A stretch of 64,000 nucleotides of DNA, from the IMG/VR virus record IMGVR_UViG_3300033149_003931, positions 1 through 64,000 of that record. One strand, given 5' to 3'. This document shows positions 14,537 through 49,818 of this stretch, one piece after another; position 1 is the first letter of the stretch, and each line of letters begins with the position of its first letter. The notes below the pieces were generated by a model. It ran no database searches, had not been told where the DNA came from, and saw only the letters and a program-made list of their open reading frames with translations. Made by a program: the position numbers and the translations under genes. Origin of the DNA: a virus.

Positions 14537-15475
14537 ATGGATTTTGTAATTCCTGCTGGTAGTGCTACTAATCTTCCAAAAGAATTAGTGGACAAGATTG
14601 TTGAAGACGCCATCGAAAAGTCTTTAGTTTTACGCATGGTCGATTCAAGGGATCAATTGATTGAGATCGTTAATGAGGGTACTATCCCGGTTATCGGTGA
14701 AGAGGATCTTGACAAAGTTTATCGTCTTGATAACACGGCTGATATTACTACATTGACTGAAATGAGTTTTGATATTAAGTCACCTGATTTGGAACCTGTT
14801 GAATTAGGTACTTATATCTATCTGAAGAAGAAACAGGTAGCTCAATATCCTGAACTCAAACTGGATCAATTGTTTCGTAATAAAATTAGTCGTGCGATTG
14901 CTCGTACAGCGGACAAGATGGCCCTTAAGGGTGACACAACTGCTGTTGGCGCAACGAATCCTCTGAATATTTCAGATGGTATCGAGAAACTGGCTAACAC
15001 GGCTAACGCCGCTAACGCCCCTGTTGAATATACGACTTCTAACGCACAGAACATTCTTGACGCTGTAGCTGAAGCACAGAGTGATCTTGGTGTTTATGGT
15101 TCTGAAGAAGATATGGAAGATTTAATTTTGCTTGGTTCTTCTGATTTCGTAACTGCCGCTAAGAAATCTGCATCTAAAGAGATGGTTGGTTATGATATTG
15201 AAGATGTACCTGCTATTAATCTTCGCCGAGTTGTTCATATTCATGGTATTCCATTGGTTCGTCGTCTAAATATTACGGGCGAAAAAGCCATTTTAGCAAA
15301 TATGAAAGGCGCTTTTGCTGGATATTATGGTAATATTGAAGTTGATGTTGAGCACAAAGCTGGCCGTCGGGCTGATCTCTTGGTTGTCACGTATTGGTTT
15401 GATTTTGTTTGGGCTTTTGTTAATGGCAGCAATAAGAGTGAGGGTTTGATTACTATTCAAAAAGCAAGTTCTTAA
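14537..15475 (+). CDS. Major capsid protein (HK97 fold)
   Basis: Follows protease; LPKEL.DKIVE...KSLV, AIAR..D..AL.GD, DGI.K; strong SD and downstream terminator. Confidence 0.88.
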   Translation: MDFVIPAGSATNLPKELVDKIVEDAIEKSLVLRMVDSRDQLIEIVNEGTIPVIGEEDLDKVYRLDNTADITTLTEMSFDIKSPDLEPVELGTYIYLKKKQVAQYPELKLDQLFRNKISRAIARTADKMALKGDTTAVGATNPLNISDGIEKLANTANAANAPVEYTTSNAQNILDAVAEAQSDLGVYGSEEDMEDLILLGSSDFVTAAKKSASKEMVGYDIEDVPAINLRRVVHIHGIPLVRRLNITGEKAILANMKGAFAGYYGNIEVDVEHKAGRRADLLVVTYWFDFVWAFVNGSNKSEGLITIQKASS

Positions 15476-20198: not shown

Positions 20199-21036
20199 AA
20201 ATCTGCTTTGGCTCACGGACTACACGGTGAAAGAAGTTCCTGCGGGTGGCGCGGAGATTACGGATTCCTATGTGATTCAGGCTGGAAAGTCTTTAGGGTA
20301 TTCTATCCAAGTGTGTTGTCCGAGTAACTTGAGATCAAATATTTTAGAAAAAAGTGATTTGGTAATTTTTAGTAATTGTTATGAGTTTCCGAAACCGGCC
20401 AGACAGATGATTATGGAGGAGAAGCCTTATGTTGTTTACTCCCATGATTCCGGTCGTTGGATGGAGGTCGTTAAAAGAAGCCCAAATATGATGAAAAATG
20501 CTCAGGCAAATATTTTTCTATCTCCGTTACACAGGGATTGTTTTTCTAAATTTTTAGTTGGGGCCAAGAATATTTTGTTAGTCCCACCCCATATTCCCGT
20601 GGAGTTTTATGATCGCGGCGCACAGCGGGTTAATAAGATTATTTTTGTTGGAAATATTCACGAAGGTAAAGGTATTTGTGAGATCATTCAATATGCAAAA
20701 GATAATCCTTGCATGGTTTTTGATTTTTATTACAAAAGGGGTGTTAGTTACCTTATTCGTCAGCTTAAGGCTTTAAATAACTGCAATTTAGTGGGTTATG
20801 TACCCAAAGAGGCGATATATAATAATTATAATAAATATAAATATTTTATTCATATACCACAGCATTATGAGTCTTTTGGTCGGGCCGTTGGGGAGGCATA
20901 TTTGTGCGGTTGTGAAATCATTGTAAATAAAAGGGTTGGAGCAGTTTCTTATGATTGGGACTACCAAACTTTCAGGAAAAGGACTATGCACGCTCATTTT
21001 ATTTTTTGGGAAAAGCTATCTAAAGCTTTGGATTAA
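20182..21036 (+). CDS. GT-B glycosyltransferase (GT4-like)
   Basis: GGAE, FVGNI...KG, ESFGRAVGEAYLCGC (EX7E). Confidence 0.85.
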   Translation: MKLKNKNLLWLTDYTVKEVPAGGAEITDSYVIQAGKSLGYSIQVCCPSNLRSNILEKSDLVIFSNCYEFPKPARQMIMEEKPYVVYSHDSGRWMEVVKRSPNMMKNAQANIFLSPLHRDCFSKFLVGAKNILLVPPHIPVEFYDRGAQRVNKIIFVGNIHEGKGICEIIQYAKDNPCMVFDFYYKRGVSYLIRQLKALNNCNLVGYVPKEAIYNNYNKYKYFIHIPQHYESFGRAVGEAYLCGCEIIVNKRVGAVSYDWDYQTFRKRTMHAHFIFWEKLSKALD

Positions 21037-35994: not shown

Positions 35995-36351
35995 ATGGAC
36001 GGAGTACTTATGATTAAATGTAGAAATTGTGGTTTTGAATTTGATGATTTAAAACAATCTGAGGTTGTTATGGGTGGAGTAAAATGCCCTAAATGTAATG
36101 CTATTGTGGATCAAGAGGGGAATGTTTTTAAAAAGGCTGGGGTTAATTTTTTCTCCCATTTGGTTAAAATTAGAAAACCTTATTTAGATACAAGAGGTAC
36201 ATATACGTGTGAGTGTATTGATTGTGCCTATGTTAAGGAGTCTAAAAAGCACTGTAAAGATATTAAATGTCCCAAGTGTGGGGGTGAAATGCGAAGAAAA
36301 AATCGTCCGGGTTCGGGAAAGAAGGCTGAGGGAATTGAAAGCGGAAGCTAA
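35995..36351 (+). CDS. Multi-CxxC zinc-finger protein
   Basis: CRNC, CPKC, CIDC, HC...CPKCGG.MRR..RPG.G. Confidence 0.7.
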   Translation: MDGVLMIKCRNCGFEFDDLKQSEVVMGGVKCPKCNAIVDQEGNVFKKAGVNFFSHLVKIRKPYLDTRGTYTCECIDCAYVKESKKHCKDIKCPKCGGEMRRKNRPGSGKKAEGIESGS

Positions 36352-36507
36352 AGAACGGAGTTAGCGAGATATTCTCTACAAGGTAGAGTTGTTGGCATTT
36401 CTTGGGATTGTTGGCCCAAAAATAACAGTCCTTGAATTTACAAAGGAGGGTTTATGTTTTTAAAAGGAGGTACGTCATGATGTAGAAACCGAAAGGAGGT
36501 ATACGTC

Positions 36508-36678
36508 ATGGCTAAAGCCCAAAAATGTAAAAGCGGGAATAAAGCCAAAGGTCGTCAGTCTGATCGCCATAAGATCGAGTATGAACGTCAAAGAATTCGT
36601 ACCGAAGCCAACAAGCGTAAAAGACGCCGAAGACATTTGGAAAAACACCTGAATGATTTGCAAGCTCAAAATGTATAA
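36508..36678 (+). CDS. Small highly basic protein (56 aa)
   Basis: Perfect AAAGGAGGT SD; MAKAQKCKSG...NKRKRRRRHLEKHLNDLQA; not in ORF track. Confidence 0.75.
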   Translation: MAKAQKCKSGNKAKGRQSDRHKIEYERQRIRTEANKRKRRRRHLEKHLNDLQAQNV

Positions 36679-36751
36679 AATGGGGTGGGGATTCCCGCCC
36701 GTCCGGAGGGTCTGAAATACGGCTTGACTGTGTGGTAGGACTAACTCCGTT

Positions 36752-36778
36752 TAGGGGCACCTTTCGGGGTGTCCCTTA
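36752..36778 (+). terminator. Stable UUCG-tetraloop hairpin at the end of the late block
   Basis: AGGGGCACCT-TTCG-GGGTGTCCCTT. Confidence 0.65.
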
Positions 36779-37094
36779 TGACTGAACCCTGAATGTTCAC
36801 TAAAAGGTAAACATTAGGTTCTGAGTATACATTATGATACCCGCCCGGGGCCATCCGGCCCACCTTCAATATTATAATTATTTATTATTAATACTATACA
36901 GCCTGCCTGATCGGGTATAAAATATCAAAATTGATGCGTTAAGGCCCGATTTCCCGATTAATACAGCATAAAAGCGATATTAACCAACCTCGACCCGGCC
37001 AAAGGCCGCCCCTCGGTTGAGAGTAAACCATTAAAATCTATCAATATTATGGAAATTAATACATAATCAGTCTTAGCCGCTTTTTAAAATAAGT

Positions 37095-37450
37095 GGGCAG
37101 ACTTGATACTTACCTGTGCGGTGGAACGTCCTCCGGAGGCAGCCTCGGGAATCGCTCCGCTCTCCCTCGGCGCCTTCCGGTTCTGATCCGTCTATTCTGG
37201 ACAGGAATCTGGACAATATGTCCAGTTACCGGATTCGTCCACTATTTAGTGGACATTACCAGTTATTTATGGGGTACCAGCAAGCCTGACCGCCTGCTGG
37301 CGGTAGACTTCCGGCATATTCGGAATGGGGCCCAGATCCGGAAGAGAGGCCTACAGAAGGCATCCTGAAGCGATTGGAGGCTATAATCGTGTCATAATCT
37401 GAAGCGTTTAGAGATCCAAATCGGGGCGACGGCGTAGCCGGAGACACGTA
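37095..37450 (+). ncRNA. Candidate large multibranch ncRNA B (unknown family)
   Basis: GC-rich island with nested stems CTCCGG/CCGGAG, AGCCTC/GAGGCT, AATCGCT/AGCGATT, GCCTTC/GAAGGC plus internal hairpins. Confidence 0.55.
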
Positions 37451-37505
37451 TTTGATAGGAATATAGCCTGTAATAGGGAATTATAAGGAATATGGGTGGA
37501 AGACC

Positions 37506-37603
37506 TGCTGGAGGGTAGGATTTTTACCTACTAGCTTGTCGTTGATTGCTTAAAGACTTGAAGTACAGATTACTCCGTGCGTGTTCATCACGCCACCTCT
37601 GGC
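37506..37603 (-). ncRNA. Degenerate tRNA-like element
   Basis: GGTGGCG..CGC D-arm-like, GTAGG-TAAAAAT-CCTAC T-arm-like, closing stem; no valid anticodon arm or TTC loop. Confidence 0.35.
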
Positions 37604-37733
37604 AAGGCTTTCTTTGGTCAGACGGTGCTTTCCCAACATCACATTAAGCAGTTATCATATGTTCTGTTTAACTTCCTTATCCCACCGCCGAAATCCGGAA
37701 GAATTAGATAGTTGGGAGTCTAATATAAATAAT

Positions 37734-38081
37734 CTACATATTTCTTAACTGATCGCCGGCTTTTGATCCACGAATACCTGAATTATTTAACACGATTAAA
37801 CTCGGTGATATTTCAGAATACTTTTTAAGAATATCTCCATGACAGGGTTTGGGGGCGCACCAACAGGCGATTACCTTGTTTCTAAGTTCTGGGAGGGCCT
37901 TAAGGAGATCCGGGCGGGATAAAAGGTATTTCTCGTATTTTTGAATGACTTCGGCACGATCACCGTCTTTTCCAATAACGAAGGGATTAGCCCATTTACT
38001 ATTGATAGGAAATCGAGGATTCCAACGTCCAATATAAATATCAAATTTTTCTCTATAACAATGAACTATTTTAATTGACAT
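37734..38081 (-). CDS. DUF4326 domain protein
   Basis: DIYIGR...SKW.NPF.IGKDG.R.EVI..Y...L.CWCAPKPCHGD.L. Confidence 0.88.
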   Translation of the reverse strand: MSIKIVHCYREKFDIYIGRWNPRFPINSKWANPFVIGKDGDRAEVIQKYEKYLLSRPDLLKALPELRNKVIACWCAPKPCHGDILKKYSEISPSLIVLNNSGIRGSKAGDQLRNM

Positions 38082-38181
38082 ATTTTCTCCAAATATTGAT
38101 TAGTTTGCGGCTTTTCCGCAAGAAAGATATATTTTATGGTTTTGTCAATCTTAGACTGAGTTTTATCTAAAAGTTTTATAG

Positions 38182-38909: not shown

Positions 38910-38944
38910 AAGTTTCTTTTAGGTTTAATTAATATTAGAAATGC

Positions 38945-39208
38945 CTAGTCTGACTATGCTTTTTTAACACAGAATAAACCATAAACGATTGTATAACCCC
39001 ATACTGTATGTGTCCGTATGCGACTGAGCTGATTGTTATACTACCCAAACCTGTTGGTGTTACGTGTCCCACGCCTCTCGCTTTAACCTTCAGGTATCCC
39101 GACGATTTGTTTATGGTATCAGACCACGCGCTACTCACCCGAATTTCTTGTATGTGATTCGAACTTATAAAGAGAGATAACCTCGGGCCTAAGCCTTGTC
39201 TGTCTGAT
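38945..39208 (-). ncRNA. Candidate structured ncRNA C (unknown family)
   Basis: ATCAGAC/GTCTGAT, CCCGAG/TTCGGG, ACCATAAAC/GTTTATGGT, ACCTG/CAGGT, GTATAAC/GTTATAC, CATAC/GTATG; G-U pairs favour the minus strand. Confidence 0.55.
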
Positions 39209-39209
39209 G

Positions 39210-44963: not shown

Positions 44964-47171
44964 TTAACCCTCCAAATAAGTTAAAAATTGGCCTTGTTTT
45001 AAAGCCTCTGTTTCTCGCTCGTTACACTCAATTAATCTATTATTATTAAAATTAAATTTATAAAACAGTGATCCATGTTCTAAATCACCAGTTTGATTTT
45101 TTGAAACAAATAATTCAAGGATTGGATGATACTTGCCCGCATCATCTTTCCAATGATAGTTTGTATCATGTTTATTTTTTGCGGTATGGAAGTTTGAATA
45201 AATTCCTGCCACAAATCTTGCAGCATACCAAAAATCACAAGTATCCTTAATATCCTTTCCTGACGGTTTATCATTAGCGGATTTGGGTACTTCAGCCGTT
45301 GCAATCACCGGACAATTCATTTTTTGTGGAAGAGTCTTTAAATAAGAGGCTATTCGTTGAGCATTCTGCGTTGACTCTAACTCTCTTTTACCGGAGGCTC
45401 GTAAATCATGAATATTATCAATCACAAGTATAAAACGCTTTCCCCTATCCTCCGATATAGTTGAGTGAATCTTTACAAAATTATCTAAACTGTCAGTTGT
45501 TTGAATATCTGAACCGTCTTTAATAATTAGATTTTCTTTTAAAATCTGTAATTTTTTCATTCCATTAAACCATTGTTCTTCATATTTTTTATCGGGTTGA
45601 CGAATATTTCGGGAACTTAAATTAGCGGCAATACTCATTAAACGGGGAATAATTGATCTTTTTGCTCCATCATCTAATGAATAAAAAGCGACAAAGTTGT
45701 CTTTACTCTGAACAAGGTTGTAGACGAAATTAAGAAGAAACGCTGATTTACCCTGTTCTGGATGTCCGATAAATAAATATAGGGTATCCTCAAAACCACC
45801 AAATTTTTTATCAAAGATTGGAAAACCCGAAGTTCTTCCGGCAAAATTTTTATTCCAAGCCAACTCAGTAAAATCTTCTAAGAGTTCATCATAAGAATCC
45901 TTCTCCTGAACATATTGAATCATGTTGAAAGAGTCTTTATTATCACTTATATCATCAATGGATCGTGTTAGTTGTCTTTTACCAATATTTAAAACTTTCG
46001 CACACTCATTGATATAACCCTCTTTACGAATAAGATTCGGACAGCCGGCGATAAAATCATAAATTTTGTTAGCTTTGATTAGGCCCTTATCATAATTTTG
46101 TAAGAGGTAAGTAATTGCCGGAATCTTCGGAAGATTATTAAACTCCTCCAAAGTGTGCTTCTTCATATATTCATCTGGATCTGGTTTTGGTTCTCCCTCA
46201 ATAATTGGTACTTTAATAATTGAGATTTCCGTATCCAAATTCTTCATTCGTAATATAGTTCTTAAAAAGCCGTCCCGGGCCGTTCCTTTATAGAGGTTAT
46301 CCGGATCAAGAGATAATCTGATTTTCTTTAGATTCATCTCAGCAATCTTTTCTAAATTCGAGTCATTTACAACATTGGTAAGACAGGCCACGACATTCTG
46401 CTGTGGGTGTAAGGCAACGGCGTCGAATACACCTTCCACAATAGTTAGCTCCTCTTTCCCGCGAACTCTTTCAATATTAAATAAATTGCTTCCTTTAATA
46501 CAGATCTTGATATAAGGGTCATTATCCGTTGTATCAAACATTCGGATAATAATTCCAGTATATTGTTTATTCTCATCCCAGATAGGAATAACTAAACCCG
46601 ATTTATGAAATACCTGAAGTAATCTATAATCAAAGAGCATTTTAGATTCTTTGTTCATTTCCGAGGTAATATCTTCTGGGGATAAGTACCCGATTTTCCA
46701 AGCTTGGATTTTCTCTTTTGTCAATCCGCGGCGTTTATAAAAAGGAACACCTTTACTCGGGTTTGGTTTTGTGCAAGAAAGCTTATGCAGCTTTTCAAGA
46801 AAATTTCTTTGTCTTTGATAAGCCTTCTCCTTTGCTGAGTATTCATATTCCTCATCAATAGGAATCCTATATTTTTTTGCCAAATCTTTAACAACGGAAA
46901 AAAAGCTTGAACCCTTAATGGCCTTCCCCGTCTTTAAAGAGTAGACATCAAAAATATCATAAGACCTACACTCAACAAAACAATAAATCAATTTATTTTG
47001 AGAATCAGGCAAAAAGGCTGCGGAAAGCTTTCCCTCATCACCGTGATCGTGAGCCTCTGTATGCGGACATTGTACCTTAGTTCCGTTGGTTTTACAACCA
47101 AGTTCACTAAGGTATTCTGGTAATTTTGCCCGAATAAGTTCTTTTATCTTATTCAGATTTTTAATTCTCAC
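44964..47171 (-). CDS. Bifunctional DNA primase-helicase (Zn finger + TOPRIM + DnaB-like)
   Basis: CP...H...CF..C; IVEGVFD, LDPD, DPDE; Walker A GHPEQGKS, FYSLDD, VIDNIH, KNQTG. Confidence 0.92.
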   Translation of the reverse strand: MRIKNLNKIKELIRAKLPEYLSELGCKTNGTKVQCPHTEAHDHGDEGKLSAAFLPDSQNKLIYCFVECRSYDIFDVYSLKTGKAIKGSSFFSVVKDLAKKYRIPIDEEYEYSAKEKAYQRQRNFLEKLHKLSCTKPNPSKGVPFYKRRGLTKEKIQAWKIGYLSPEDITSEMNKESKMLFDYRLLQVFHKSGLVIPIWDENKQYTGIIIRMFDTTDNDPYIKICIKGSNLFNIERVRGKEELTIVEGVFDAVALHPQQNVVACLTNVVNDSNLEKIAEMNLKKIRLSLDPDNLYKGTARDGFLRTILRMKNLDTEISIIKVPIIEGEPKPDPDEYMKKHTLEEFNNLPKIPAITYLLQNYDKGLIKANKIYDFIAGCPNLIRKEGYINECAKVLNIGKRQLTRSIDDISDNKDSFNMIQYVQEKDSYDELLEDFTELAWNKNFAGRTSGFPIFDKKFGGFEDTLYLFIGHPEQGKSAFLLNFVYNLVQSKDNFVAFYSLDDGAKRSIIPRLMSIAANLSSRNIRQPDKKYEEQWFNGMKKLQILKENLIIKDGSDIQTTDSLDNFVKIHSTISEDRGKRFILVIDNIHDLRASGKRELESTQNAQRIASYLKTLPQKMNCPVIATAEVPKSANDKPSGKDIKDTCDFWYAARFVAGIYSNFHTAKNKHDTNYHWKDDAGKYHPILELFVSKNQTGDLEHGSLFYKFNFNNNRLIECNERETEALKQGQFLTYLEG

Positions 47172-49323: not shown

Positions 49324-49818
49324 CTAGTCAACTTCTATTTCGTCTGAATTACCCGCTCCATACTTCTTTTCATCATTATTCTTGATATTCCTACAGGTAC
49401 GAATCAATTCTGTGGCTGATTCCAAACTACCCTGTAATTTATCCCTTAAACGTCTTTCTGCGGCTACGGCTAAACTAGCCTCGGGTTCCGCCGCCGCTGC
49501 GATATATTTGGCATTTTCGGCTTCGGCCTTATTCTTGAGTAACATCTTATAAGCAGCATTTTTATTCTTTACTAAACCACAAAGCTGATAATAATAGTCC
49601 GCCACGAAAGCTTTGTGTCCCGTAATCTGTTTTTGAAAATCATCGACCTTATCAACATTCTTATGATCAAGTTTTATCATCAATTTGGAACCATTTCGGA
49701 TAGCTTTTTGACTGGCCTCAGTAATCTTTTCAATCTTAACCAAAGACTTAGAGTTATCCTTATTAAATTGTTCTACTAATTTTTCTAAAGCCATTGTATT
49801 TTCCTCCGATTTATACAA
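49324..49818 (-). CDS. Helical hypothetical protein (possibly UvsY-like)
   Basis: All-alpha coiled-coil pattern; function weakly inferred. Confidence 0.55.
   Translation of the reverse strand: MYKSEENTMALEKLVEQFNKDNSKSLVKIEKITEASQKAIRNGSKLMIKLDHKNVDKVDDFQKQITGHKAFVADYYYQLCGLVKNKNAAYKMLLKNKAEAENAKYIAAAAEPEASLAVAAERRLRDKLQGSLESATELIRTCRNIKNNDEKKYGAGNSDEIEVD

Follow-up and report, generated by a model that had tools for sequence, protein, structure and literature searches.

The tRNA cluster of phage T4 encodes small stable RNAs, referred to as species 1 and 2, and few large non-coding RNAs (ncRNAs) are known from phages. The GOLLD and ROOL RNAs have often been found near tRNAs and in prophages (PMC5737381). 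At the locus considered here, a stretch of a phage genome (37095-37450) had been proposed, from inspection of its letters, to encode a further RNA of this kind, i.e., a novel ncRNA of ~350 nt with a GC-rich, deeply nested architecture, in which four long-range helices enclose a series of hairpins. Our analysis leads to a different picture, in which the stretch is part of a fast-evolving, hairpin-dense and GC-rich untranslated junction that holds small local functional modules instead of one 350-nt fold; this reading is our foremost candidate and is held tentatively, as it falls a little short of being probable.

Genomic Setting and Anatomy of the Spacer

The source is an uncultured tailed phage of 92.5 kb, represented by a virus record of 92,567 bp with 36% GC and direct terminal repeats. 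The first 64 kb of this record make up the window, i.e., the whole stretch of DNA that was presented for analysis and in which positions are counted here. The phage has no close relative in GenBank, where the best matches of its primase-helicase are Bacillota phages with at most 27% identity, and no DNA match to the spacer has been found among GenBank phages. The plus-strand genes on the left encode a tape-measure protein, tail proteins, a zinc-ribbon protein (35995-36351) and an Arg/Lys-rich ORF of 56 aa (36508-36678), which belongs to the DUF7022/PF22887 family with ~27 clusters in the protein collection and forms the left flank of the spacer. The right flank is a DUF4326 gene on the minus strand (37734-38081), the first in a series that continues with an RNase T-like exonuclease and extends up to the primase-helicase (44964-47171). 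The spacer is the convergent junction between the late/structural operon on the plus strand and the replication-side operon on the minus strand. The cumulative GC skew peaks at this spacer, with gene orientation as a confounder. Upstream of the Arg-rich ORF (36352-36507), three AAGGAGG sites and micro-ORFs have been noticed, a layout kept in the related contigs L020 and L029. Shortly 5' of start codons, the plus strand carries the 14-mer TTATTTGTATTTAA three times without mismatch (9445, 12872 and 21055), and no copy with fewer than three mismatches lies within the spacer. For a neighboring protein of 261 aa, no relatives have been found among the viral contigs.

The spacer, delimited by ORF lists, composition and flanking genes, is free of ORFs, rich in GC and 1,055 nt long (36679-37733), and the reported stretch is its GC-richest core. 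The GC content amounts to 0.50-0.545 in 37100-37500 compared to 0.36 genome-wide, and across the entire 92.5 kb it peaks at 37001-37600. The island that had been described as far richer in GC than its flanks is therefore present, but the ORF-free GC-rich unit is wider than the ~350 nt assigned to it. The absence of a credible ORF has likewise been borne out, as just two chance frames are found (91 aa with a GTG start, and 63 aa), neither of which matches Pfam; no frame is opened by code 4 or by reading TAG as Q, and the six-frame pieces are also without Pfam matches.

Several local features are distributed over the spacer. Near its left edge, a plus-strand segment (36708-36743) is common to L020 at 80% identity, where it lies within a terminator composed of a hairpin and a U6 tract, whereas the window copy has no U tract. 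It is followed by a module common to L029 (36788-36836), which consists of a AATGTTCAC hairpin and GTATACATT, by two AT-rich tracts (36860-36935 and 37020-37095) and, between these, by a hairpin (36985-37020) with the same 2x2 loop layout as the conserved hairpin described below (AACC-TC...TC-GGTT on the plus strand, CC-GA...GA-GG on the minus strand). To the right of the core, a TATAAT is found on the minus strand (37476-37481), and a plus-strand terminator-like hairpin followed by ATTTTTA (37504-37530) is the sole match in the spacer to the simple consensus of an intrinsic terminator, i.e., a GC-rich stem-loop and then a U tract. At the right edge, the DUF4326 ORF has a C-terminal extension of ~20 aa that is absent from its homologues of 85-95 aa, and this tail beyond all homologue ends (37734-37800) points to an indel or to the loss of a stop codon.

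Folding of the Core

The segments from which the nested architecture had been drawn are present. The four long-range complements CTCCGG/CCGGAG (H1), AGCCTC/GAGGCT (H2), AATCGCT/AGCGATT (H3) and GCCTTC/GAAGGC (H4) have been located, and the four hairpins (CTGGACA, GTCCACTA, CCAGCA and TTCCGG) can be read in the sequence at their claimed positions. Minimum free energies (MFE) of 37095-37450 have been compared with dinucleotide shuffles for each strand separately. The minus strand reaches -136.2 kcal/mol, with z = -3.72 (100 shuffles) and z = -4.39 (400 shuffles, none of which is as good), vs -128.9 kcal/mol on the plus strand, with z = -0.98 (100 shuffles) and z = -1.07 (400 shuffles, 60 as good). 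The expected excess of folding is thus significant on the minus strand and not on the plus strand, with similar numbers of G.U pairs in the two MFE structures (11 and 13). The complementarity of the outer arms to each other is marginal on the minus strand (z = -1.94, 41 of 1000) and has z = -0.91 on the plus strand.

Regarding the individual helices, the pair probabilities of H1-H4 are ~0 on the plus strand, where a local hairpin at 37133-37180 dominates with 0.5-0.9 in wider contexts. On the minus strand, H2 (0.47-0.94) and H3 (0.63-0.98) are predicted, with H3 lengthening to 9 bp by inclusion of one G.U, while H1 stays at or below 0.06 and H4 at 0. Together, H2 and H3 form an interrupted helix of 13-15 bp with high probability, predicted on the minus strand only, whose 5' arm in plus coordinates (37141-37158) overlaps the conserved local hairpin and pairs with 37367-37382; the latter arm holds the first copy of CTGAAGCG, a second one being located at 37399-37406. 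A 12-bp minus-strand helix, CTTCCGGTTCTG/CAGATCCGGAAG (37174-37185 with 37333-37344, probability 0.69-0.89), supplants both H4 and the TTCCGG hairpin, and in the resulting minus-strand fold, H2+H3 and the 12-bp helix close off a multibranched domain. The palindromes CTGGACA and GTCCACTA are paired with probabilities of 0.86-0.94 on both strands, and the CCAGCA hairpin with 0.02-0.33. From the single nested structure, H2, H3 and the two TGGAC palindromes hence survive in the ensemble, but H1, H4 and the TTCCGG hairpin do not. As the segments are real and the minus-strand folding is exceptional, with the drawn architecture predicted just in part, the original prediction is partly confirmed as an observation.

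Relatives at the Same Junction

Five related phage contigs (L019, L020, L029, L030 and L031) have been found by scanning the collections with the neighboring proteins. In the closest syntenic relative, L020 (primase-helicase 77% identical), the junction is fully syntenic and the distance from the Arg-rich ORF to DUF4326 is ~285 nt vs 1,055 nt here; only 36708-36743 and the local hairpin align, and ~800 nt of the spacer are missing. L029 (primase-helicase 76% identical) has a spacer of ~600 nt and shares with the window the module at 36788-36836 and a core at 37108-37262, which corresponds to the reverse complement of L029 14697-14862 with ~75% of the window positions identical. The alignment of this core includes six indels of 1, 1, 2, 2, 4 and 6 nt, and the fact that just the 6-nt one is a multiple of three, together with the lack of Pfam matches, argues against coding. 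In L019 (57% identical), the spacer of ~760 nt (20270-21035) reaches up to 62% GC and contains an irregular hairpin of ~90 nt, but has no alignable similarity, and no copy has been found in the complete or near-complete records of L030 and L031 (57 and 62%). The core 37108-37262 is absent from L019, L020, L030 and L031 according to BLAST and to a covariance model derived from the alignment of the window with L029, and the 3' half of the stretch (37262-37450) has no alignable counterpart in the relatives, its only shared pieces being the 8-mer CTGAAGCG, present in L029, and a patch that resembles GGCYTACAGARGGC by eye.

Searches beyond these contigs have been negative for the core. Loci found via DUF4326 belong to unrelated phages without the element, and a metagenome scan with the Arg-rich ORF returned seven loci, none of which has the core. 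The pattern GTCCACTATTTAGTGGAC gave no match, GTCCACTATNNANTGGACAT matched only L029 and, by chance, an AT-rich coding region of L043, and TCGGCG-N1-2-CTTCCGGTT gave 120 chance matches among genome contigs, in high-GC bacteria, none of which fits the core HMM.

On the 155-nt core, the structure conservation index from RNAalifold stays at 0.39-0.49 whichever strand is used, even with the register of the inner hairpin stem corrected, and the minus strand has 0.45-0.48, which argues for local rather than global structure; this index and the covariation described below are based on two or three homologues. The spacers of the relatives are GC-rich as well, and each reaches, on one strand or both, a z-score between -2.0 and -3.5. 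In L019, the strand of the replication genes folds better (z = -2.85 vs -1.24). Length and content of the junction change from relative to relative, and the right flank has undergone rearrangement. Taking into account that GC-rich, well-folding spacers recur with differing content, the junction appears as a conserved kind of place whose content changes quickly. Directly 3' of the Arg-rich ORF, L020 and L029 have a canonical terminator with a hairpin and a U6 tract.

A Conserved Local Hairpin

The search for homologues and covariation, by which the proposed RNA was to be checked, has indeed revealed covariation, but it is confined to one hairpin of 48 nt (37133-37180), and the long-range helices are not conserved among the two or three homologues available. 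The hairpin has the same three-part architecture in the window, L029 and L020. Its outer stem Pa (37133-37139/37174-37180) reads GGAGG/CCUUC, GGAAGC/GCUUCC and GAGA/UCUC across the three phages and is followed by a bulge of 1-2 nt, which is the A at 37141 in the window. The stem Pb, GCC/GGC (37142-37144/37169-37171), is invariant, as is the adjoining 2x2 internal loop (37145-37146/37167-37168), which is UC/UC on the plus strand and a tandem GA/GA on the minus strand. The inner stem Pc (GGGA/TCCC, 37147-37150/37163-37166) closes a terminal loop of 12 nt and varies as GGGA/UCCC, AGAU/AUCU and GGCCCGGGG/CCCCGGCC, with L029 differing from the window by three double compensatory changes, which implies selection. 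The hairpin pattern occurs once per genome, save for one much longer coincidental match at 49478, and a relaxed scan for tandem-GA hairpins has been unspecific (50 matches vs ~35 in shuffles).

The hairpin occupies the 5' arms of H2 and H3 and one arm of H4, and consequently the hairpin and the originally drawn nest are mutually exclusive. The idea of a deeply nested RNA of ~350 nt is weakened by this covariation in favor of a competing local hairpin, by the 3' half without counterpart and by the L020 spacer of merely ~285 nt. The minus-strand version of the hairpin gains 4-7 kcal/mol in stability. On its 3' side, UUUUGGUUU is found in L029 and UUCUGAU in the window, and L020 has no U tract; as neither the window nor L020 has a U tract here, the hairpin is not a plain intrinsic terminator. 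A kink-turn has also been considered and rejected, as the minus-strand loop is a symmetric 2x2 GA/GA flanked by GCC/GGC and has no 3-nt bulge. The most likely role of the hairpin is in RNA or protein binding, or in processing, within the untranslated 3' tail of one of the converging transcripts.

TGGAC/GTCCA Repeats

Five TGGAC/GTCCA motifs are clustered within 57 nt of the core (37197-37254), at the only site of the 92.5 kb genome with at least three TGGAC per 80 nt. They include two perfect palindromes, CTGGACA-ATA-TGTCCAG (37209-37225) and GTCCACTA-TT-TAGTGGAC (37237-37254). The second one contains GTCCA-N8-TGGAC, which is retained in L029 with its half-sites, its spacing and the flanking CG...ATT, while three inner pairs of the 8-bp palindrome stem of the window are lost there with no compensation. 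Besides this inverted repeat, which is probably a protein-binding site, the window has three further TGGAC copies. In addition, a 9-mer family, [AT]ATGT[ACT][CT]A[CG], which was defined post hoc after the sites had been seen, occurs five times in 465 nt here vs 22 times genome-wide, and five times in the L029 spacer; the two 9-mers of the 36788-36836 module are duplicated in L029, and L020 and L019 are without any of the motifs.

Tests against Known RNA Classes

The statement that the stretch belongs to no known RNA family has held up. Rfam gives no hit at the gathering score in the 64 kb, and there is no match to the models of GOLLD, ROOL, RNase P, tmRNA, SRP, group I/II introns or riboswitches; with Rfam 15 at E <= 10, the region 36300-38100 yields two chance C/D-box matches (E = 4-7), both outside the stretch. 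No tRNA is found in the window or in the 92,567 bp genome by ARAGORN and Rfam, nor is there any similarity to the tRNA array of L036 described below, and the relatives L020, L029 and L031 carry one or two tRNA genes each, located elsewhere. The L020 tRNA (14903-14987) lies just past the homologue of a 172-aa gene that borders a 300-nt gap of the window (38910-39209), and the gene order differs beyond it; the gap has no Rfam match and no similarity to this tRNA. ARAGORN reports no tmRNA at its default threshold. At the 80% threshold, a permuted tmRNA is called at 37109-37644, with an atypical tag of 25 aa that ends in SLSLIA and is marked 'not identified'; its T-loop-like GGTTCTGATCC is absent from L029 and the Rfam tmRNA models are silent, so that the call is regarded as a false positive, as is a similar sub-threshold call at a non-homologous position of the L029 spacer. 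A retron or DGR ncRNA has been rejected with no RVT_1 match in the 92.5 kb, control genomes being positive, and a group I or II intron with no intron model match and with flanks that are two separate, complete genes on opposite strands.

Competing Interpretations

In the reading that we tentatively prefer, the junction is a quickly changing, hairpin-rich untranslated region with local modules. The 48-nt hairpin, located in the tail of one of the converging transcripts, would probably be a site of recognition or processing, GTCCA-N8-TGGAC and the extra TGGAC copies would be likely protein-binding sites, and the other strong hairpins would halt or dampen converging transcription and shield 3' ends. 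The anatomy, the strand-specific excess of folding, the patchy conservation and the hairpin covariation are observed, and the putative transcription of the core, the strand used and the terminator, insulator or binding roles are inferred. The canonical plus-strand terminators located before the hairpin in L020 and L029 favor minus-strand transcription of the core, whereas the plus-strand ensemble favors the conserved hairpin. Several observations speak against the reading of local modules: a minus-strand z of -4.4 over 356 nt exceeds what is usual for independent hairpins, H2+H3 is predicted with high probability on that strand, 50-54% GC over hundreds of bases is more than terminators need, and the conserved hairpin is not a plain intrinsic terminator. 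A first rival is a stand-alone, lineage-specific minus-strand ncRNA that would run from ~37470 leftwards to 37095 in the multibranched H2+H3/12-bp fold and act, e.g., as a decoy or scaffold, which we consider somewhat unlikely. The difference between the strands (-4.39 with 0 of 400, vs -1.07), the persistence of H2/H3 (0.47-0.98) and the 12-bp helix (0.69-0.89) even in a 1 kb context, the coincidence with the GC maximum of the genome, the higher minus-strand stability of the conserved hairpin with its tandem GA/GA loop and the better folding of the equivalent strand in L019 all point to such an RNA, as do the TATAAT at 37476-37481 and the 21 tRNAs around the Arg-rich ORF homologue of L036, given the location of GOLLD and ROOL near tRNAs (PMC5737381). 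However, its long-range helices have no counterpart in L029 and L020 and face competition from the conserved local hairpin, the minus-strand structure conservation index amounts to 0.45-0.48, and L020 lacks ~800 nt of the spacer. Moreover, the TATAAT has no -35 box, no terminator is found at the 3' end, the complementarity between the arms is marginal (p ~0.04), and the stretch was picked for looking structured, which introduces a selection bias. The interpretation as a novel large ncRNA is thus partly supported, by the lack of a family match and of a coding signal, the GC island and the minus-strand z-score, while its extent and nesting are not upheld by the relatives.

The alternative that the element acts at the DNA level, as a protein-binding array (origin, fork or transcription barrier, operators) composed of TGGAC/GTCCA and AATGTNNAC 9-mers in both orientations, is distinctly improbable in our view; the GC-rich hairpins would then be incidental or form cruciforms. 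It draws on the genome-unique cluster of five TGGAC in 57 nt, on perfect palindromes with 3- and 2-nt centers, the latter being too small for the loop of an RNA hairpin, and on L029, which keeps the half-sites and spacing of GTCCA-N8-TGGAC with three inner pairs lost uncompensated and has two of the 9-mers duplicated. The density of the 9-mer family (5 in 465 nt vs 22 genome-wide), the adjoining AT-rich tracts at 36860-36935 and 37020-37095 and the replication genes that start at the right flank are further consistent with it. Yet the family was defined after the sites had been seen, L020 and L019 have no motifs and presumably replicate alike, the GC skew peak fits a terminus rather than an origin, with gene orientation confounding, and the compensatory changes in the 37133-37180 hairpin stay unexplained; in addition, the half-site geometry of the two palindromes is opposite, and therefore one dimer could not read both. 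An equally poor chance is given to largely functionless, decaying DNA, i.e., an indel hot spot that could derive from a lost RNA-gene array or from horizontally acquired GC-rich DNA, with the hairpins as leftovers and the long-range complements arising by chance. Such decay would be in line with a junction that differs in length and content in every relative next to a rearranged right flank, with the 20-aa tail of DUF4326 as the mark of an indel at the right edge, with the absence of tRNAs here vs 1-21 in relatives, and with the element missing from four related genomes. But comparisons with tRNAs, the L036 array and protein families reveal no residual similarity, neutral DNA should drift toward AT in a phage of 36% GC, whereas all four relatives retain a GC-rich spacer, and decay leaves the compensatory changes of the hairpin and the minus-strand z of -4.4 unaccounted for. 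The preferred reading of a junction with local modules and its three rivals overlap in part.

If the preferred reading is true, the locus is an ordinary but well-resolved example of a fast-evolving, hairpin-rich junction of converging phage operons, with one unusual feature, a possible recognition site in the form of the small hairpin with covarying stems around an invariant internal loop. A true minus-strand RNA would add a new large ncRNA to the few known from phages and would tie large ncRNAs to the tRNA-array slot and to the DUF7022 family of Arg-rich proteins. The case also illustrates that a strong single-sequence folding score and a GC island are insufficient, as the relatives have changed which helices are credible.

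Comparison with Known Systems

The Arg-rich ORF at the left flank provides a link to RNA-gene clusters. Its best metagenomic homologue (75% identity) is located inside an array of 21 tRNAs on the same strand in the otherwise unrelated contig L036 (1355-3925), and another homologue adjoins a tRNA-Met in L037 (1453-1528). Since homologues of this ORF are found amid tRNAs elsewhere, the position of the spacer corresponds to an RNA-gene slot of other phages. The ORF is the most mobile piece of the neighborhood and may encode an RNA-associated protein that travels with RNA-gene clusters. With GOLLD and ROOL, the stretch has in common that it is large, GC-rich compared to its surroundings, non-coding, phage-borne and placed in a tRNA-array slot, which makes an analogy and not a membership. 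It differs from them by the lack of an Rfam match at E <= 10, the structure conservation index of 0.4-0.5, the genome without tRNAs and the threefold variation of the region in length and content among relatives. By this analogy, a minus-strand RNA of ~370 nt of no known family in the tRNA-array slot might be a young or fast-evolving functional analogue of GOLLD and ROOL, which we regard as unlikely. Species 1 and 2 of T4 are likewise structured non-tRNA RNAs in a phage RNA-gene cluster, whereas the present phage has neither a tRNA cluster nor identified processing signals.

Arrays of iterons or inverted repeats resemble the locus in their motifs in both orientations, palindromes with 2-3 nt centers, AT-rich tracts and nearby replication genes. 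However, the putative array here comes without an identified initiator or repressor, its motifs are missing from L020 and L019, the GC skew has its peak at this position, and the half-sites are mixed. Bidirectional terminators and stabilizing hairpins of 3'-UTRs share with the spacer the convergent junction, the series of strong GC-rich hairpins and the rapid turnover of sequence with hairpins kept; canonical hairpin-plus-U6 terminators are found at the left edge in L020 and L029, and a consensus match at 37504-37530 here. In contrast to terminators, the spacer extends over 1 kb with a GC content beyond the needs of termination, and a U tract is missing from the conserved hairpin both in the window and in L020; its 12-nt loop and invariant internal loop are instead features of a recognition element.
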